Shown here piece by piece: positions 22,964 to 56,815 of a DNA stretch of 64,000 nt. Source of the DNA: a virus. The DNA is taken from IMG/VR virus record IMGVR_UViG_3300009182_000050, positions 1-64,000 of that record; one strand, written 5' to 3'. Positions within the stretch are counted from its first letter, which is position 1. The number at the start of each line of letters is the position of its first letter. Under the pieces are notes generated by a model. That model was not told where the DNA came from. It saw only the letters and a program-made list of their open reading frames with translations, and made no database searches. The translations under genes were made by a program, and so were the position numbers.

Positions 22964-24152
22964 TACTAATATCTCTTCTTGGATTAAATCCTTCTCCGAC
23001 TGTAAATGTGAGTAGACCAGGTTGACTTTCTAATCCTGCTCTATCACGCCACCAAGGACTGCCGTTATCAGTAGTCGGAGCCTGAAGCCATAGGCGAGAA
23101 CCAATATCAAGTGCTTTGAAGTGATGATAGTGACCTGATACCCAGAGGTCTGCTTGACCTAGTGCTGTCTGACCTGCTGCTTGACCTGATAAATACTTAA
23201 CAACATCTTTACCGCATTGATGTCCGTGAAATAAACCTACAAGAGTTCCGCAGATATTTACTGTAAGAGTCTGATGGTCTTTTTCTGGATAGCGAAACTT
23301 AATATGAGATAGAGCGTCATTCTCAGCGCAAGCATCTTGAACGGCTGATGCAATCTCTACATTCCAACCGTCTGATGGGTCTGCTACAACTTGTCGTGTA
23401 ACTTCATCGTGATTACCATTTACGACTGCAATAATCATTTCTTCACAATGCGGTGCAAAAGTTTTAATTTGTTGCATCAAAAGACGACGAGCAACACGAG
23501 TCTGCTCTGTTTGTCCAAGGTCTGATGCTGCAGGACTTTGAAGACGACCATTTTGAGAAGTGTTACCTTCCACATGGTCTCCAGCGAGAAGAATAGAAAC
23601 CGTTCCTAGACTACGACCAATCTTTTGTAGTTCTTTGTATCGCTGAAACGCTCCATCAGTAACACTTAAAATTTTCTGAATTGAATCTTCAGTTCCTAAA
23701 CCATTGGCTTTTTTACCAATCTGTTGGTCTGATGGAACAATTACAAATGCACCGTCTCCAGTTGCTTGCTTAGAACCTTTAGTTGGTTTCCATTTTTTAA
23801 TTTCATCTACAAGTTGCTCTAAATCAAAATCAGGTCCATCAATCAAATCTGCTGGAACAACTGAAACCTTATAAGCTTCTAGCCAATCTTGATTAAATGT
23901 CTGCCACTTACTTTGACGCACACTTGTTACACGCCAAGCCTTTGGGTCTAAGCCAAAGTCTTTAAGAATTTCGTCTGCATCGGCTGAGTTACCAGCAGGA
24001 CGAGGAGTACTGACAACAAAGCCACCAATATTGTGGTCAATATCCATACGCGCTCTCCACGCTTCTGGGGTTTCATTTGAGCGTCTATCAGAGCCTGTCT
24101 GACCAGGAGATGCTAATTCTTCTAAAACTTTTTTTGAAAAACTCTCTGACAT
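22950..24152 (-). CDS. Mre11-like metallophosphoesterase / exonuclease
   Basis: SDQQIGK, AGDHVEG, GNHDE, HGH and GHYHH motifs. Confidence 0.88.
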   Translation of the reverse strand: MSESFSKKVLEELASPGQTGSDRRSNETPEAWRARMDIDHNIGGFVVSTPRPAGNSADADEILKDFGLDPKAWRVTSVRQSKWQTFNQDWLEAYKVSVVPADLIDGPDFDLEQLVDEIKKWKPTKGSKQATGDGAFVIVPSDQQIGKKANGLGTEDSIQKILSVTDGAFQRYKELQKIGRSLGTVSILLAGDHVEGNTSQNGRLQSPAASDLGQTEQTRVARRLLMQQIKTFAPHCEEMIIAVVNGNHDEVTRQVVADPSDGWNVEIASAVQDACAENDALSHIKFRYPEKDHQTLTVNICGTLVGLFHGHQCGKDVVKYLSGQAAGQTALGQADLWVSGHYHHFKALDIGSRLWLQAPTTDNGSPWWRDRAGLESQPGLLTFTVGEGFNPRRDISIIQP

Positions 24153-24442
24153 CACTGATTACCTAATGCTTCTATACGAGCATTAATTCCTGTGAAGCAC
24201 CGGCATTGCTTACGACGATGAAGTGCTAAAGAAGATTGAGCAATGTCATATCCTTCTGATATGAGTAATTCTTGTATTTGACGATTTGAGAATCTTTTCA
24301 CTTTATCACTTTGTGGAAAAAGAATAAGTTCTAATGTATTTTTATCGTCTTTATCCATAACGGACATTACTTTTGAAACACCGCAAGGCAATCCAAATTG
24401 GGGTGCGCTAAGTTCTGATACTTTTTGTGCCAGTTTTCCCAT
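24152..24442 (-). CDS. Small Cys/His protein upstream of the phosphoesterase
   Basis: PCGV...HRRKQCRC; translationally coupled. Confidence 0.65.
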   Translation of the reverse strand: MGKLAQKVSELSAPQFGLPCGVSKVMSVMDKDDKNTLELILFPQSDKVKRFSNRQIQELLISEGYDIAQSSLALHRRKQCRCFTGINARIEALGNQ

Positions 24443-24568
24443 ATTCAGTCCTTCCATAAAACAAGTCTTGTGACTAGTTATGTAAGAACTTTAGCAGAAA
24501 TATAGTTAAAAATAATGACTATGTTATGGGCGTGTCTAAATATTATAAATATAAAAACTGCTAGAAAA

Positions 24569-30017: not shown

Positions 30018-30512
30018 TTAACTATTGCGCTTCAAACTACTCTGTACTCCATAATACAGGGGAGCAGCTGAACTTAGTCCAAGTTCACGCGCAAGAATTG
30101 AAAGAGAAACACCACTACGGTATTCATCTGCTAGTTGGTCATGGTACTGGTCAATACCAATTTCTTTTGCTTCCTTGACTCGCTGTGCAGCATCAAGATT
30201 CTGTTGCTTTGTTGCTCGTGTCTTTGGCTTAATGCTGGACACTGATACATCTTTCATAACAACTCGGCGGCGCAGTCCTGGGTAAGCAACTTTAAGTGCT
30301 ACAGCAAGTTGTGGAAGACTTCCACCCTTTTCCTGATACTCAACAAGAAGTTCCGTATAGGTACGACTTGCTGTGTGTTCTGGACTATTTTGGCTACGAG
30401 AACCGTAAGCCTTTTTAGCCAATGGCAGGATAGGAGTAATCTTTTCCGTATACTCAACTAAAAGTTCATTCATAATGTCTTTTTTCTCCAATTTGTCATT
30501 AGCGTGTGTCAT
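30018..30512 (-). CDS. Tandem HTH DNA-binding protein
   Basis: Two similar segments (YQEKGGSLPQLAVAL / YRSGVSLSILAREL); leaderless start. Confidence 0.65.
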   Translation of the reverse strand: MTHANDKLEKKDIMNELLVEYTEKITPILPLAKKAYGSRSQNSPEHTASRTYTELLVEYQEKGGSLPQLAVALKVAYPGLRRRVVMKDVSVSSIKPKTRATKQQNLDAAQRVKEAKEIGIDQYHDQLADEYRSGVSLSILARELGLSSAAPLYYGVQSSLKRNS

Positions 30513-30582
30513 AGAACTATGGTACAAGCTATTAATAACTAATGCAAATCAGATAGATATCTAAAGACATCTTCCTGCACTT

Positions 30583-30795
30583 TTATTCGTTATTGTCTTT
30601 AGAATCTTCTTTTTCTAATGGCTCACGAAGGCGTAGCGTGATAAGCCATAAAACTAGAGAAAAGAGGATTGCATAACCCACAATAACTCTGGCTGAACCG
30701 TCAAGCACGCACCAAGCAACAAACATACCTAAAAGTGTCCATGTCTGGTTTAGTGACTCAACGATGATATCTTTAATCCAACGAAGTAGTCTCAT
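30583..30795 (-). CDS. Small two-TM membrane protein
   Basis: Two hydrophobic helices; coupled to the upstream gene. Confidence 0.7.
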   Translation of the reverse strand: MRLLRWIKDIIVESLNQTWTLLGMFVAWCVLDGSARVIVGYAILFSLVLWLITLRLREPLEKEDSKDNNE

Positions 30796-33260
30796 TATAT
30801 TTTCCTTGTCAATAGTGATGCAGTTCCAGCAATAACCTGAGTTACAATTACAGCTGGAATTGCTGCTTGTTGTGCTTTCTTGCGTGTTTCTGGTGTCATA
30901 TCTGCACCAACATTTGCGATAGCAGTAAGTGCTTTACCTGGGTTGGTAAATACTGCTGACAAAATCTCGGAAGGGGCTTCAAAAATTTGTAGAGCGTCAG
31001 CAACATTAGCTGTCAAAACTACGCCATTTTCCAAAGTAATTGGTTGCTCTGGTGGCAAGTCTGAGTAATCCAAGCCGGACTCTGCAAAGACATCAGCAGG
31101 AATTGCTGTATCTGCATAAGCCGTAACAAGAACATCAGAAACTAATTGTTTTTCTTCCTCGGATAACTGACCATCTGCTTGCAAGTTATCAACAAGATTT
31201 GTTACTTCTTCTTGACTAAGATTTCCATCAGATAATAAATTACTAACAATTGCTTGAGTCTCTGCTTGAGTTATAACTCCATCAGATGATGCATTGTCTA
31301 CAAGAACTTGTTGCTCTTGCTGAGAAGAGATAGTAGGCTCAACTGTAGGTTCAACATTAGGAGTTGGTTCAGGTGAAGAAGTTACTACGGGCTTTGGGGA
31401 CGGTTCTGATGATGGGGTTTTGGATGGTTTTGGTTCAGGCTCTTTTGTTGGGGTCACTATGGGCGGTTCTGTTGGTTCTGACGTCGGTGTGGGAGTAGGT
31501 TCAACAGTTGGTTCTACAGTAGGTTCAGGTGTTGGTTCAACAGTTGGAGTTGGTTCAACAGTTGGCTCTACAGTTGGAGTTGGCTCAATAGTTGGGCTAG
31601 GTTCTACAGTTGGGGTTGGGGTTGGCTCTGGTGTTGGTTCAACAGTTGGTTCTGGAGTTGGAGTTGGAGTTGGAGTTGGAGTTGGAGTAGGAGTAGGTTC
31701 AACTACAATACCTAAATCACAAATAGAATCTCCAGAAACTCTTTGACAAGAATTAGTTCCTGGGCCACCATAAAATAAACCATTCTCATCTATGACAAGA
31801 TTAGTGTCGTCTCCTTCACCACCATAAAATGCTGAGTGCCACTGTTGAACAACAATGTCATTCCCAGCACCACCAAAAAAGTAATCTCTAGTTTGTGCAT
31901 CAGAATCTAAAGAATAAACAGTATTATTTTCAGAGTTACCACAAAAAATATCTGGACTATTGCCATAGTTATTACCAAATTCTCTAGAACCTTCAGCCAA
32001 ATTTATATGCCAGTATCCTGAGTAAACTCCTGCTAATAATTGTTCTCTAGTAATTCCTATGATTGAAAGTATTGAATCTGCAGTAAAACTTGGGTCATCA
32101 ATGTTTGCTGCACATTGGTCAATTGTTGGAGGCTCTGCTGGACATTGCTGATTCCACTCAACATATGAACTATCCCAACAATGAACAGGTGGTGGAATTA
32201 CTGGACAAACACCATTCCACGGAACTACATCATTATTCCAACAAATAATATCGGGTGGAGTTGGAGCACACTCTGATTGATAGTGAACTACGGAGTCGTC
32301 CCAGCAAACTACTTGAGGCTCTATAGGACAAGTATCATTCCAAGCAATAGAAGCACCATTCCAGCATTGAATAGGTGGTGGTTCTGGTAAGCAAGTACCA
32401 TTCCAAGAAACAGTAGAACCGTTCCAACATTGAACATCAGGAGGAGTTGGTGGACAAGTTTGATTGTAAGGAATTGTAGAGCCATCCCAGCATTGAATTG
32501 GCTGAGGAATTACTGGACAAGTTTGACTCCAAGTTACCCAAGAACCGTCCCAGCACTGTGTGTCTGGTGGAACTGGTGGGCAGGTCTGATTCCACGCGAC
32601 TGTTGAGCCATCCCAACATTGACCTGCTGGAGGTTCTGCAGGACAGGTTGAAGTAAGAGGAATTACAGAACCATCCCAACAAGATTGCATTTCAATTGGT
32701 CGGCCACCATTAACAGTAAATGCCTCAGAGATGGTAACTACATCTTGCCCAGAAATAAATCTAATACCTCTACGAAGACTACTTGGAAGCCATCCTGTTG
32801 TTTCAATAGTTCCTGACCAAGCTGGTAAACGAGAAGTATCAACAGTCAATGTAATTTTTGTAAAATCACCATTGTTTTGTGGGTATGGACGAACCATCCA
32901 CTCTACACAAAAACCTGTTTCAGTTGCTCCATAACTCAGGTAACCACCAGACCAAGTAACCCAATCCCATCCGGCTAAAGAGATAGAAGGAGTATTTGGA
33001 TAACTACTAAATGTTGCATCAGGTGAACCAAATGTGAGCGTTCCATTTGTAGTTGCGTAGACAGTATCGTAAGAAGTGTCACCAAGATTTATATTTGTAG
33101 GAAGAAATATTTGATGTGCAACATCATCTTCGCCTGTCCAAGAAACTTGGTTGCAAGGCTGAGGGGCTACCGCATTTGCAGGACTCTGAAATGCTAATGG
33201 TAAAACTACCAATAATGCTAAATATGTATAAGCGGTTAAGGCTCTAATAAACTTAGACAA
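30795..33260 (-). CDS. Exported/membrane-anchored protein with 9 CW(D/N)GS Cys repeats, RTX-like GGxGxD motifs, PT/PE linker and EF-hand-like repeats
   Basis: Signal peptide (..PANA), repeats visible in the translation, C-terminal hydrophobic anchor; GGAGG SD before TTG. Confidence 0.8.
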
Positions 33261-33341
33261 AGTAGCCCCTCCAGCAAGGGTATTCGTTCCGTGTGTCAGC
33301 CTGTGTGTCGTCAGACTTATATCACTATTTTACTTTAGTTA

Positions 33342-34019
33342 CTAACTATCTAAGTTATCTATTTGTTTCACATAAGCAATGTATGCGTGTCTAACAGTTG
33401 CTGGATACCATTGCTTTCCTTCGTGTGCAGTAGGTATTCCCTCAGCATTAAGAGCATTAGCAATAAGTTGATAAGACATTCCTAACTGTCTATTTTTATA
33501 GATTCTTTCTCGTACTTCTTTCTCAATATCTGGTGTAGGTCCAAGGTCTATACCCCAAACTTTTCCATTACTTCGTCTATCACGGTGAACATCTTTTTGA
33601 CGTTCAGAAATCATTCCGCGTTCCATCTCCGCCATAGCAGCCATAATGGTAACAACAAAACGACCCTGATGAGTTGCAGTATCAAGACCAAGGTCAAGAA
33701 GAGCCAAACGCCAACCAAACTTATGAGAACGGTCAACAATGCTAAGAAAATCTTTAGTTGAACGCGCCAATCTATCAAGACGTGTGACATAAATTGCCTG
33801 AGCCTTTCCTGCGTCTAGGTCATCTAGCGCATTTCTTAGTACTGGTCGTCCTTGAATACTTTTACCTGAGCGACCTTCTTCTCTTAAAATTACTGGTTCA
33901 TAGTCAGCAGCAAGTGCTGCATACTCCATTTGTTTGACCTGAGCATCAAGACTGATTCCATCATTGACCTGCATCTGTGTTGATACGCGAGCATAGAGGT
34001 AAGCAATTCCGTTAAACAT
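33342..34019 (-). CDS. Serine recombinase (resolvase) with short recombinase-type DNA-binding domain
   Basis: YARVST, SGK...GRP, RLDRLAR, AEMER...ER and IANALNAEG...W motifs. Confidence 0.92.
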   Translation of the reverse strand: MFNGIAYLYARVSTQMQVNDGISLDAQVKQMEYAALAADYEPVILREEGRSGKSIQGRPVLRNALDDLDAGKAQAIYVTRLDRLARSTKDFLSIVDRSHKFGWRLALLDLGLDTATHQGRFVVTIMAAMAEMERGMISERQKDVHRDRRSNGKVWGIDLGPTPDIEKEVRERIYKNRQLGMSYQLIANALNAEGIPTAHEGKQWYPATVRHAYIAYVKQIDNLDS

Positions 34020-51608: not shown

Positions 51609-51794
51609 CTAGGTCCGGGAAAAAAATTTTTGATACCTCGTGCGGCCGGCCAACTCAGCTGCCCCCGGACCAGAAAAGATAATTTCGGTTCTCGTCATCT
51701 CCGGCGATTGACGACACGCTACGATTTGACAAAAAAGAAATAATAGACATAGAATCAGTTTTGTAAGTCCAACACCTACACAAGGGAGATACCA

Positions 51795-53666: not shown

Positions 53667-54713
53667 ATGGCTACTATCAAAGACACATACGCAATCATAG
53701 GCACGACTTTCGCATCTCGTCTTGACGAGTTTATGGCTCAATCAACTGTCGTTGATGCTGCACTTCGCATCAACTCAATGGTGACTCCACAGGGTCGCTA
53801 CACGAAGCGAGCACCACGCACCACGAAGCCAAAGAGCACGACACCAGCAGTTGATGTTGATGTAGTTTCTGCGACTTCTGTAATCGCAAGTGAAGATAAC
53901 ATCTTTACTCGTCCTAATGGCTCTGCCTATCACGCACGCAAGTGGGGTGAACATCAAGATGTCGCAACTCTTCGCAAAGCTCGTGAAGCAACTGCGATGG
54001 TGATGTCAGGTGTTGTAGGTTCGCCTATGTTCGCACTTCTCTATGGTGCGCCGGGAACTGGCAAGACTGCTCTCGTTGAGGGTGCGTTTGGTGAAGTCAA
54101 TCTTGTAATGGGAACTGGCGACACAGAAGTCTCTGACTTCATTGGTGGTTATGTTCAGACTCCATCAGGTGGCTTTGAGTGGATTGATGGTCCACTACTA
54201 AAGGCCGCAGAAAATGGTGAAGTTATCTTCATTGACGAGATTGGTCTCATTGACCCAAAGGTCTTGTCTGTTGTTTATGGAGCGATGGACGGTCGCAAGG
54301 AAATCGTAGTAACTGCGAATCCGGAGCGCGGAGCAGTCGCTATCAAAGAAGGTTTCTATGTTGTAGCAGCGACTAACCCTAACGCTCCCGGCGTTCGACT
54401 TTCGGAAGCATTACTATCTCGCTTTACTATTCAAGCAGAGATGGCAACTGACTGGTCACTTGCTCGCACTCTACATGTTCCAACTGCGATTGTGACTTGC
54501 GCTCAAAACTTGAGCAAGAAGCAAAGTTCAGGTGAAGTTAGTTGGTCTCCACAGATGCGTGAGTTGCTCGCGTTCCGCGACATCGCAGGTGTCTTTGGTA
54601 ACACATTCGCTGTATCAAACCTACTCGCCTCTGCACCAGAGATGGACCGACCTGTTGTGTCTGATGTCCTGTCTCGCGTGTTCGGTAGCGAGTGCAAGCC
54701 AGCGAGAATCTAA
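53667..54713 (+). CDS. MoxR/CbbQ/CobS-like AAA+ ATPase
   Basis: GAPGTGKT, DGPL, IDEI, ATNP and EALLSRF motifs. Confidence 0.9.
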   Translation: MATIKDTYAIIGTTFASRLDEFMAQSTVVDAALRINSMVTPQGRYTKRAPRTTKPKSTTPAVDVDVVSATSVIASEDNIFTRPNGSAYHARKWGEHQDVATLRKAREATAMVMSGVVGSPMFALLYGAPGTGKTALVEGAFGEVNLVMGTGDTEVSDFIGGYVQTPSGGFEWIDGPLLKAAENGEVIFIDEIGLIDPKVLSVVYGAMDGRKEIVVTANPERGAVAIKEGFYVVAATNPNAPGVRLSEALLSRFTIQAEMATDWSLARTLHVPTAIVTCAQNLSKKQSSGEVSWSPQMRELLAFRDIAGVFGNTFAVSNLLASAPEMDRPVVSDVLSRVFGSECKPARI

Positions 54714-54854
54714 CTCCCTTTAGGTTCTCGCTAGGGTGGGGTTGAGTCGCACTTGGTGTCGCGACTCCCCCACCCACCACTCAACTTGACACCATCATAG
54801 AACTACTGTAACTTTGGTCTTAGACACACAGACCCTTTTAGGGAAGGACAAGAA

Positions 54855-56633
54855 ATGGCACATCTAGACACAGCAACAACAGAGCAAGGAACTCGTCACA
54901 ATGAGTGGCTCACAGTTGGAGCACAGATTGGACAGCTCGTCAATGAGGCAGCAGGTCGCTACGACCTTGTAGGTCTTGCAGGACCTGTCGCCGGTAGTGG
55001 AGCACCAGCGTGTTTCAAGCCAGCGATTGCGGAAGTTGAAGTGAACACCACAGTCGCGTTCGGCGCAGGTACAACACCAGAGATGATTGGTGACATCAAC
55101 CTACGCGAAACTCAATACGAGTTTCCAAAAGCAACTGGAGCAATTCTTCACGAAGCTTTTCACGCAAGATTCTCTGCTTGGGAACTTGTAGATGCTCAAG
55201 CAGTTCTCAAAGCAGACGAGTACGAAGCACTCGTGCTACTTGAAGAGACTCGCATTGAGAAGCAGGGTCTTGACCTTGACTACAAGAATCGCGTGTTCTT
55301 GCGTGCATCAGCACTTGAGATTGCACTAGGTGACATTGAGGCCGCCAAAGAAGCAAGTAGTGTTTCACAACTTGCACAGTTGGTTGGTCTGATTCACGGA
55401 CGAGTGCTCGCCGGTATTCTTGAATTTGACGAAGTTGAAGAAGTCATAACATCTGTGAACTCCGCACTTGGTGAAGACATCGTTCGCCAACTCTCAACTA
55501 TCTTGCGTAAGTTTCAATCACACTACAACAATTCAGATTTGACTGATGTCTACCCACTAGCAATCGAATGGGCACGAATCGTTCGCGAAGCAAAAGAAGA
55601 GCGTGGCGAAACTGATGGTGGTTCAGGTTCAGGTGCAGGTGCTGGAGAGATTGCAGAGATTCTTGAGAAGTTAGCAGAAGCAGCTGATGGAGTTTCTATC
55701 AAGAACTATGGCGAACTTTGTGACCAGCAAGAAAGCGAAGAGTGGGAGCAAGAAGTCAAAGAGCGTGCATCAGCATCTAAAGAACAGCACGAGCACGCAA
55801 GCGAAGCAGCAGAAGTATTTGGTAAAGGTACAGGACCTGCACCAGAGTCTTCAACAACAAGTCACCTGATTGAAACTCGCAAGCCTACAAGTAGCGAGCG
55901 TTCGGCAGCAGTTGTGGTTGCTCGTATGCTTGAGAAAGCAAAGTATCGTGAGCGCGATGCGATTGAGATTACCAGCGTACTTCCTCCCGGTCGTCTTCGC
56001 ACAAAGGCTCTCGTCCAGCAAGCAGCACTTCGCGACAAGGGCATACACAAACCTGTTGAAGCTTTCCGCAAGACTGTACGCAAGCACACAGACGACCCAA
56101 CTCTTTCTGTTGGTGTCTTGGTAGACATCTCTGGCTCAATGAACTCTGCGATGAACCCAATGGCAGTTACAGCGTGGGTAATGAGCGAAGCAGTAAAGCG
56201 TGTTCAAGGTCGCGCATCTATGGTCTACTTTGGTCAAGATGTATTTCCAACTCTCAAAGCCGGACAAAGCCTTGATGATGTGAATGTGTATTCCGCGACA
56301 GATGGCACAGAGAAGTTTGACAAAGCGTTCAAGGCTCTTGATGGCTCTCTCAACCTGCTACACGGAAATGGAGCACGATTGCTAGTTGTCGTCTCTGATG
56401 GCTGCTTTACAGGTAAAGAAGTCAAAGCGACACGCAAGTGGATTGCTAGATGTGAGCAAGCCGGAGTTGCGGTATTGTGGATACCGTTCGATGGTGGCTA
56501 TCACGCACGGAAACTCTTGAGCGACTCAAAGGTGAAACCTTTAGTCGGAGTGAGTGACCCTGTTGAGGCCGCCACAGAAATCGGGCAAGCGTGCGCTAAG
56601 GCTCTTACTCAAGCAGGTGCTCGCAACTCATAA
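54855..56633 (+). CDS. VWA-domain protein with N-terminal HExxH motif (CobT-like partner)
   Basis: HEAFH, LEETRIE, DISGSM MIDAS and VSDG motifs. Confidence 0.88.
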   Translation: MAHLDTATTEQGTRHNEWLTVGAQIGQLVNEAAGRYDLVGLAGPVAGSGAPACFKPAIAEVEVNTTVAFGAGTTPEMIGDINLRETQYEFPKATGAILHEAFHARFSAWELVDAQAVLKADEYEALVLLEETRIEKQGLDLDYKNRVFLRASALEIALGDIEAAKEASSVSQLAQLVGLIHGRVLAGILEFDEVEEVITSVNSALGEDIVRQLSTILRKFQSHYNNSDLTDVYPLAIEWARIVREAKEERGETDGGSGSGAGAGEIAEILEKLAEAADGVSIKNYGELCDQQESEEWEQEVKERASASKEQHEHASEAAEVFGKGTGPAPESSTTSHLIETRKPTSSERSAAVVVARMLEKAKYRERDAIEITSVLPPGRLRTKALVQQAALRDKGIHKPVEAFRKTVRKHTDDPTLSVGVLVDISGSMNSAMNPMAVTAWVMSEAVKRVQGRASMVYFGQDVFPTLKAGQSLDDVNVYSATDGTEKFDKAFKALDGSLNLLHGNGARLLVVVSDGCFTGKEVKATRKWIARCEQAGVAVLWIPFDGGYHARKLLSDSKVKPLVGVSDPVEAATEIGQACAKALTQAGARNS

Positions 56634-56738
56634 CTGAATAACACAGACCCTTGTCGTCGGGTATCGTCCTTCCAGCGTGTGTCAGCCTTACGACAAGTTT
56701 TGGAAAAGCCTCTGCCAATCGGTGGGGGCTTTTTCTTT
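56631..56738 (+). ncRNA. Candidate antisense sRNA hairpin (3' UTR of the VWA gene) plus terminator
   Basis: Stem 56650-56657/56690-56697, large loop complementary to the RBS region 33265-33302; terminator 56704-56738. Confidence 0.5.
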
Positions 56739-56815
56739 GGTCGGCGTGTTGTGATTTGACAAGATGTCAGGGGGAGCGTGTATGATAGGTACATAACACC
56801 TACAAGGGAGAAATT

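Follow-up and report, generated by a model that had tools for sequence, protein, structure and literature searches.

The window studied here is a stretch of 64,000 nucleotides (nt) of a virus, positions 1 to 64,000 of IMG/VR record IMGVR_UViG_3300009182_000050, and our subject is a hairpin that lies directly after the stop codon of a gene for a VWA-domain protein. This hairpin is probably an antisense element directed against Shine-Dalgarno (SD) sequences, which would limit translation of the VWA gene that carries it and, in the sublineage of the window, act in trans on the gene of an 821-aa protein 23 kb away. The evidence is computational throughout: the hairpin has a stem that co-varies, its loop is complementary to the leaders of both genes, and these complementarities are conserved and co-vary. 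The most general one joins the loop to the SD region of the same gene. In nearly every lineage of the VWA gene, a hairpin lies about 30 nt past the stop codon and its loop is complementary to the SD region of that gene; the sequences involved are lineage-specific.

The VWA gene (54855-56633, + strand; 592 aa; Pfam VWA_CoxE, 2.1e-06) ends with a TAA codon at 56631-56633. The hairpin that follows (56650-56697, + strand) has exactly complementary arms, CTTGTCGT (56650-56657) and ACGACAAG (56690-56697), and its stem is extended by the inner pairs G56659.U56688, G56660-C56687 and G56661-C56686. These enclose a 24-nt loop (56662-56685) that carries the putative antisense determinant. Between the arms lie GTCCTTCCAGC (56666-56676) and then GTGTGTCAGCCT (56677-56688), and the stretch CGTCCTTCCAGCGTGTGTC (56665-56683) is identical in all window-type copies. 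RNA folding places an intrinsic terminator next to the hairpin (56702-56738), with a 15-pair stem at 56702-56735 and a U run; hairpin and independent terminator together fold at -41 kcal/mol (z = -2.75), which 1 of 200 shuffles equals. A hairpin with a U run comes after the element in most relatives, and one relative, G011, has no clear terminator. On the 5' side, the VWA leader contains a GACACAC box near its 5' end (54823-54829), complementary to GUGUGUC in the loop (56677-56683), and the SD region GGAAGGAC (54842-54849), complementary to GUCCUUCC in the loop (56666-56673). An earlier note, made from the letters of the window, had described the stem, loop segments and terminator as well as both boxes ahead of the start codon at 54855; a sequence check and the fold confirmed all of them.

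A putative promoter for the VWA gene, TTGACA-17 nt-TAACTT (54786-54814, + strand), was read from the sequence and is absent from the listing of a consensus promoter scan. If it is used, the 5' untranslated region (UTR) would be about 34 nt long, and relatives have TTGACA-type -35 elements at the same position before the VWA gene. On reading the aligned contexts, no conserved promoter was seen within the 3' end of the VWA gene. The SD GGAAGGAC is atypical among the early leaders of this phage, where AAGGGAGA is usual. It is a rare 8-mer with two non-self copies in the 72-kb record to which the window belongs, both before start codons; across four genomes it occurs 2-5 times per genome, and five of the eight non-self copies precede start codons. 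Most early genes (45-64 kb, + strand) carry (G)ACACCUACAAGGGAGAAA ahead of the start codon, the VWA gene being an exception. The VWA leader and the 5' flank and arm of the hairpin also have a 12-nt direct repeat in common, ACACAGACCCTT (54826-54837 and 56641-56652), the 10-mer core of which has just two copies in the window.

The hairpin is conserved in relatives of the window. A search with the VWA protein gave relatives with 95, 67, 54 and 54% identity, each of which has a hairpin after the stop codon with a different stem and the same loop core. An 18-mer from the loop was found in 13 viral contigs, with the hairpin after a VWA stop codon in all 13, and a metagenome scan with a 16-mer gave 134 matches, of which 16 passed the context filter; 15 of these are true loci and one (L285) is a chance match. 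In prokaryote genomes the 18-mer had 17 matches, with about 17 expected by chance and none in a VWA context, and an unspecific 14-mer scan of viral contigs gave no new leader type among the matches listed. For stem covariation, the copies were anchored on the loop core, which kept any preference of an alignment program for a structure out of the comparison. Among 13 distinct standard-type copies, 136 of 143 cells are paired (95.1%), compared with 39-52% when the partners are slid by one to three positions. Seven of the 11 stem pairs have changed on both sides, including a series A-U / G.U / G-C, and stem variants include CUAUCG/CGAUAG, CUGUCG/CGAUAG and CUGUCG/CGACAG. The variant type L004 (two distinct copies) keeps an outer and an inner helix in a different register. 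In the MAFFT alignment A1, 78% of cells are paired, against at most 55% when slid, and its covariation score was reached by none of 500 shuffles. Judged by these comparisons, the hairpin is a real RNA element under selection as a structure.

Next, we compared the region after the stop codon with the leader of the same gene across the VWA family. A profile search gave 80 VWA loci with 44-95% identity. The 75 usable ones were combined with the window and with DSL-LC01, a metagenome-assembled Actinomycetia phage that is the nearest named relative of the window record, to give 77 sequences, 61 of them distinct; two distinct sequences were dropped for a misplaced start codon. In the remaining 59 loci, the first 80 nt after the stop codon were compared with the -45 to +6 region of the same gene. 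The longest exact complement averages 9.02 nt in cognate pairs (range 6-14) and 6.48 nt in permuted pairs (standard deviation 0.17), a difference reached in none of 20,000 permutations. The result is the same with one locus for each of the 18 leader families (9.00 versus 6.41 nt, standard deviation 0.29; 0 of 20,000), and the duplex energy behaves likewise in the 59 loci (-27.4 for cognate pairs versus -22.3 for permuted ones, standard deviation 0.5; 0 of 20,000). The cognate pair beats every unrelated leader in 24 of the 59 loci. At 56 of the 59 loci the complementary sequence is part of a hairpin loop, counted as such when at least half of it is unpaired and four or more pairs close around it; in 47 of 59 it overlaps the leader zone from -18 to -5.

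The sequences of these pairs change together. Examples are CTGACGGAAGGAT with ATCCTTCCGTCAG and CAAAGGACAAACAA with TTGTTTGTCCTTTG, and a series in which the leader runs from GGAAGGAC to GGAGGAC as the loop runs from GTCCTTCC to GTCCTCC. In the relative G001, the leader box UUGGACAC matches an altered loop, GUGUCCAA, and the VWA leader of G011 likewise matches its own loop. DSL-LC01 has a quite different 21-nt loop in the hairpin after its VWA gene, and the longest complement of this loop in the 129-kb genome, 13 nt, falls in its own VWA leader. The earlier note had proposed silencing in trans, autoregulation, or both. Both withstand the comparison, with a change of emphasis: the distribution across lineages indicates that self-pairing is the ancestral, general function and that the trans target 23 kb away is specific to a sublineage.

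This trans target, the gene of the 821-aa protein, is on the minus strand (30795-33260, with a TTG start at 33260). Its leader contains two blocks complementary to the loop. Block 1, AGGCUGACACACG (33290-33302, minus strand), pairs over 13 nt with 56676-56688. Block 2, GCUGGAGGGGC (33265-33275, minus strand), holds the SD motif GGAGG and forms 11 pairs, two of them G.U, with 56666-56676. The earlier note had given the identity between the loop and the 33-kb region as 12 nt. The match is real, its 12-mer having only these two exact copies in the window, and it extends to 13 nt (56676-56688 is identical to 33290-33302 on the + strand). The start codon, the coverage of GGAGG by the second block and the two C/T differences between the loop and the + strand sequence GCCCCTCCAGC (33265-33275), both of which give G.U pairs with the minus-strand mRNA, were borne out by a sequence check.

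An RNAduplex scan of the 32-nt loop region against both strands of the 72-kb record placed the 821-aa leader first among the non-self matches in 14,422 windows, at -43.0 kcal/mol (next -35.1, mean -17.3, standard deviation 4.8). Among 75 dinucleotide shuffles of the loop, none reached this energy anywhere in the record; their best values average -35.8 (standard deviation 2.0, minimum -41.1). The target thus outranks the shuffled controls that the earlier note had named as a check. We also ranked start regions, called crudely by taking open reading frames (ORFs) that reach 80 aa and have an SD-like motif, each genome being probed with its own loop. Among them, the leader of the 821-aa gene or its homolog comes first of 71 in this record, where it scores -43.0 and the runner-up -29.9, first of 99 in the relative G002 and second of 81 in the relative G004. 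When the leader upstream of the SD block was shuffled, the observed energy was reached 0 times per 1000 in this record (G000), 4 in G002, 41 in G004 and 13 in G011.

Homologs of the 821-aa protein are found at 33 loci, and their leaders sort into five types. The type that follows a recombinase gene (group A) comprises nine distinct leaders, including that of G004. Every one keeps (C)UGACACACG, GCUGGAGGGG and CCCUUGCUGGAGGGG, and CCCTTGCTGGAGGGG of block 2 is invariant; the spacer between the blocks ranges from 9 to 29 nt and its sequence cannot be aligned. Complementarity to the 821-aa leader, which had been expected to persist in relatives, is kept in both blocks in G002, G003 and G004 and co-varies in G011. 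In three phages of 90, 91 and 98% completeness, the 821-homolog has another leader type in which the boxes are absent and loop pairing is at background (-10 to -21); no VWA homolog was found in these three phages apart from one marginal match (E = 6.5e-4, 19% identity). No 821-aa homolog was found in DSL-LC01. In window-type lineages the loop is frozen while the VWA leaders differ and drift, which points to a second constraint on the loop, as a role in trans would impose.

The minimum free energy (MFE) fold of the 821-aa leader contains a small hairpin, GUCUG-ACGACACA-CAGGC (33299-33316, minus strand), with the GACACA box in an 8-nt loop; the place of its 5' arm in the transcript is putative. 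For eight of the nine distinct group A leaders, the MFE fold leaves NNGACACA in an 8-nt loop on a stem of varying sequence (UCCG/CGGA, UUCG/CGAA, UGG/CCA, GUCUG/CAGGC). As NNGACACA is displayed in an 8-nt loop by differing stems, these predicted folds suggest that a loop-loop contact is the first step of pairing with this leader. The 821 SD region (33262-33275, minus strand) has an inverted repeat about 90 nt downstream in the coding region (33159-33171, minus strand), GUAGCCCCUCAGC in this phage and CCCCCUCCAGCAAG in G002. This internal repeat is predicted to sequester the 821 SD in four of the nine leaders, and CCCUU just upstream can do so locally. In another phage group (L063, L066, L068-L070, L075 and L076), the 821-aa homolog directly follows a tRNA-like sequence and has a different leader, and the VWA gene is absent.

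The relative G011 has the VWA gene (54% identical) and the 821-homolog on one contig. Its hairpin has a 10-bp stem and keeps GGUAUCGUCCUUCCAGCG, and the 3' half of the loop is AACUGUUUUCGU, with AACUGUUUU where the window type has GUGUGUCAG. The leader of its 821-homolog lacks the GACACAC box; instead, AAACAGU stands directly before CGCUGGAG, so that loop and leader could form 7 bp, one bulge and 8 bp. Loop half and leader box thus appear to have changed together, a matched change that is unlikely by chance (13 of 1000 shuffles). A 17-mer scan gave no second contig of this type, its match L333 being a chance match.

Several results weigh against an antisense role of the hairpin, in cis or in trans. 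The invariance of the loop core owes something to searching with exact patterns; the protein-based searches gave the same core in window-type lineages and graded variants in other lineages. For this phage and the lineages closest to it, the match to the own leader is short, two blocks of 7-8 nt. Its energy in this phage is -25.0, and 9 of 70 other start regions are at least as good; in G002 it is bettered or equalled by 11 of 98 and in G004 by 5 of 80. Anti-SD loops pair with many SDs; only 3 of 18 families have the own leader as the best partner by energy, and in the reverse direction the leader pairs best with its own 3' region in 5 of 18. The match in the own leader of DSL-LC01 is AU-rich, and its energy is reached by 80 of 95 shuffles. 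As regards the trans target, G000, G002, G003 and G004 share ancestry, so the conserved 821 blocks represent one lineage plus G011. In G011, the 821-homolog leader ranks 3 of 33 start regions (-23.1), a scan of the contig is not outstanding (29 of 54 loop shuffles reach its best energy), and a cofold does not choose the proposed loop-leader pairing. A cognate 821-type leader for the G001-type loop was not recovered, as G001 ends inside the recombinase gene and five other contigs have no recombinase. None of the sequencing runs in an RNA-run search contains the hairpin sequence. Lastly, a GACAC box and an SD make up the general layout of early leaders in this phage, and this raises the background for matches to the loop.

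This last point leads to the alternative that only self-pairing is functional, the 821 match being a by-product of a common leader layout in which a GACAC box is followed by a purine-rich SD. The early leaders of this phage have (G)ACACCUACAAGGGAGA in common, self-pairing is family-wide, and the 821 target is testable on only five contigs, four of them close kin, and does not stand out in G011. We consider this alternative unlikely. Ordinary early leaders of this phage, which have the same layout, pair with the loop at -11.5 to -21, compared with -43.0 for the 821-aa leader, and that energy is reached by neither the 75 loop shuffles nor the 1000 shuffles of the upstream leader. A by-product also leaves it hard to see why both 821 blocks are conserved while the spacer varies, why loop half and box changed together in G011, and why the loop is frozen in window-type lineages that differ in their VWA leaders.

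In the antisense reading that we favour, the 3' UTR of the VWA mRNA would contain a regulatory RNA element with a large loop, the antisense determinant, held open by a stable stem. In this group of freshwater actinophages, the loop would pair with the SD of the own leader once the 3' end is transcribed, hiding the ribosome-binding site, blocking the 30S subunit and thereby limiting VWA translation; a second box further upstream, on that mRNA or a sister copy, would pair too in many lineages. Self-pairing may join the two ends of a single mRNA, or a 3' fragment may bind newly made mRNAs. In the sublineage of the window, the loop would have become fixed with a stronger match to the 821-aa leader, of 13 bp at the GACACAC box and 11 bp over GGAGG. 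As this leader is on the other strand and 23 kb away, it can be reached only in trans, and the element would also have to work as a diffusible RNA, either as the 3' end of the VWA mRNA or as a processed piece of about 100 nt that ends at the terminator. That the RNA is made and stable, that a small RNA is released from it, that its effect is repression rather than activation, and its timing are what we infer from the sequence.

The pairing could also be real with a positive or stabilising effect, protecting the mRNA from nucleases that depend on the 5' end or opening an inhibitory structure in the leader. We regard this as quite improbable. It would suit the position of the own-leader box at the predicted extreme 5' end of the mRNA in this phage and in DSL-LC01, and, as the 821 SD can already be sequestered by CCCUU or the internal anti-SD, regulation may exceed simple occlusion. 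Against it, 47 of the 59 loci have their complementarity over the SD zone itself, and in the cases described in the literature, such as icaR (PMC3868564) and c4 (PMC12197685), a duplex over the SD blocks 30S binding.

It is very improbable that the shared sequence is a DNA site bound at both loci by the serine recombinase or by a transcription factor that recognises GACAC. In its favour, the + strand has the two copies as direct repeats, the 821-aa leader has a gene for a 225-aa serine recombinase beside it, and the CGACACGC boxes, which precede TTGACA promoters in each of the four genomes examined, are a genuine DNA element. Yet the blocks adjoin directly in the hairpin (spacer of 0 nt) and are 9-29 nt apart in the leaders, the copies differ in ways compatible with G.U pairs, and both sites lie in RNA hairpins with co-varying stems. 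Recombination between the direct repeats would remove 23 kb including the ribonucleotide reductase gene, the promoter box is CGACACGC in a fixed relation to the -35 element, which is seen at neither site, and across the family the loop has its partner in the SD of the same gene, the sequences differing in every lineage. That the hairpin is an ordinary terminator or stabilising hairpin with chance complementarities is scarcely credible: it stands at a gene end next to a terminator, and the VWA homologs of the Microbacterium phages Pumpernickel and Cece are followed only by a plain GC-rich hairpin, but cognate complementarity reached by none of 20,000 permutations already contradicts chance, a large loop conserved while stems vary already contradicts an ordinary hairpin, and the top match genome-wide falls on a ribosome-binding site.

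Three narrower ideas were tried and rejected. The region 33278-33302 was read as a colinear second copy of the loop (GGGTATTCGTTCC...), and its spacer proved not to be conserved in G002 and G003, where the two complementary blocks are. Crossover by the serine recombinase would call for two sites alike in layout, spaced uniformly about a central dinucleotide, a spacing which the hairpin and the leaders do not have. A WhiA-like DNA box at GACAC leaves the hairpin unexplained, and CGACACGC, which precedes TTGACA promoters by 13-25 nt, is a different element.

The closest parallel for self-pairing is icaR of Staphylococcus aureus, in which an anti-SD motif in the 3' UTR is described as pairing with the SD of the same mRNA and hindering translation initiation; its paper calls the case a singular example (PMC3868564). 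As in that account, the phage has a 3' UTR motif complementary to the SD of its own gene (GUCCUUCC with GGAAGGAC, and family-wide). With the promoter-like TTGACA-17-TAACTT before the gene and the terminator past the hairpin, both ends may lie on one transcript. There is no sequence relation to the icaR motif as described, and the phage motif is placed in a hairpin loop directly after the stop codon. It also co-varies with the SD across dozens of lineages and matches a second gene in trans in this phage, neither of which belongs to icaR as described. Cleavage by RNase III and an effect on translation are putative in the phage element.

The parallel for action in trans is the c4 antisense RNA of phages P1 and P7, described as pairing through short loop-borne blocks around the ribosome-binding site of another phage gene, with specificity that shifts by matched changes in RNA and target between P1 and P7 (PMC12197685). 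The likeness, which is one of mechanism only, lies in the two loop blocks 56666-56676 and 56676-56688 facing 33265-33275 and 33290-33302, and the window type and G011 parallel the matched change of specificity between P1 and P7. The c4 RNA is processed into an RNA of its own, lies upstream of its target within one transcript and controls immunity; it has an Rfam model. The phage element, in contrast, forms the 3' UTR of a gene for a protein and has its own mRNA as main partner; its trans target lies 23 kb off on the opposite strand. No Rfam family was found in the window at the gathering threshold, and a permissive search of 56560-56800 gave a best score of 22.8 bits against a cut-off of 75, with c4 not among its eight weak matches. 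Because there is no homology and the architecture differs, the element is a member of neither the icaR nor the c4 family; without an Rfam entry, it is a candidate for a new one.

Small RNAs (sRNAs) derived from bacterial 3' UTRs are a further parallel, and in proteobacteria they are usually Hfq-dependent. They share a terminator with the mRNA and pair with another mRNA, a likeness that extends to the phage element, in which two hallmarks of such sRNAs are seen, conserved complementarity near the ribosome-binding site of a target and an intrinsic terminator. CisR, from the prtV 3' UTR, is described as acting on the cep mRNA of CTX-phi (PMC13250501). Such sRNAs as described are encoded by the host, whereas this element is encoded by a phage of actinobacteria, and its release from the mRNA is putative. 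If our reading is true, the element would be a phage-encoded RNA regulator in actinobacterial phages; a limited literature search found no report of one, or of such an element, in these phages. It would show the logic of icaR as a selected, co-varying feature in 59 distinct phage loci, which amount to a natural series of compensatory mutations bearing on a mechanism that is difficult to prove by other means. It would also connect the uncharacterised pair of AAA+ ATPase and VWA genes with a secreted repeat protein.

Further candidate targets have the motifs in common. In the leader of the ORF 30018-30527, before the terminase gene, UGACACACGCU (30501-30511, minus strand) has 11 nt complementary to AGCGUGUGUCA in the loop; this 11-mer is found at the homologous place in G002 and partly in G004, and a match of this length alone is within chance (about 0.8 expected). 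The 101-aa ORF 24152-24457 has GGAAGGAC as its SD (24448-24455, minus strand), with GACACGC about 75 nt upstream. Neither the 169-aa nor the 101-aa ORF has a family in Pfam or PHROGs. A holin-like ORF of 86-89 aa with two hydrophobic helices is found in G002 (72573), G004 (66473) and G001 (46997; positions as oriented) and is absent from the incomplete record of the window. Its SD in these three genomes is GGAAGGAC, exactly complementary to GUCCUUCC in the loop, and among start regions the ORF comes second of 99 and first of 81. In DSL-LC01 (L334), AAAGGACAA is the SD motif of at least 18 + strand early genes, located at 8.5-43 kb of the record, and it is complementary to 9 nt of the loop in the hairpin after the VWA gene.

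Taken together, these targets may outline a timing circuit made of RNA only, with the element as its hub, in a large group of uncultured freshwater actinophages. We put this forward tentatively and think it rather unlikely. Translation of a VWA mRNA would last no longer than it takes for its own 3' end to be made and to fold back on the ribosome-binding site. The accumulating 3' fragment would then be a diffusible anti-SD RNA that shuts down a small regulon, which could include the 821-aa envelope protein, the holin-like gene of relatives (GGAAGGAC), the gene before the terminase and the 18 or more AAAGGACAA early genes of DSL-LC01.

The 821-aa protein is predicted to combine about 11 CW..W..C-P repeats and a Pro/Thr linker with a signal peptide and a C-terminal membrane anchor. 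Searches of Pfam and PHROGs gave no family for it beyond low complexity, a Pfam line for neurotoxin receptor binding (E = 0.19) being noise, and its N-terminal domain is perhaps NIDO-like, a lead from an Atlas look-up. Directly upstream lies the gene of the 225-aa serine recombinase (33342-34019, minus strand), which has a Resolvase domain and the start of a Recombinase domain. This gene pair is kept in G002, G003 and many short contigs with the same leader type. Both genes belong to a minus-strand block with the terminase and ribonucleotide reductase genes, beyond which lies a + strand region with many small ORFs; the + strand of the window also has tail, DNA polymerase, helicase and primase genes. 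The 72-kb record has an estimated completeness of 54%.

The upstream neighbour of the VWA gene encodes an AAA+ ATPase (53667-54713, + strand; AAA_5, 4.7e-20). Between it and the VWA promoter, at 54740-54785, a long hairpin of the GGGGUGGG...CCCACCCC type with a loop containing GGUGU is present in all lineages inspected. The CGACACGC boxes occur 13-25 nt upstream of a TTGACA -35 element at 51712, 52529, 53083, 58216, 58741 and 62510 (+ strand) of the window and also in G001, G002 and G004. The -35 element is often followed by (A)TGTCAGG or GTGCAGGAAGG, and some boxes lie in loops of GC-rich hairpins. The combination of CGACACGC and promoter looks like a three-part early promoter or operator architecture common to this phage group.

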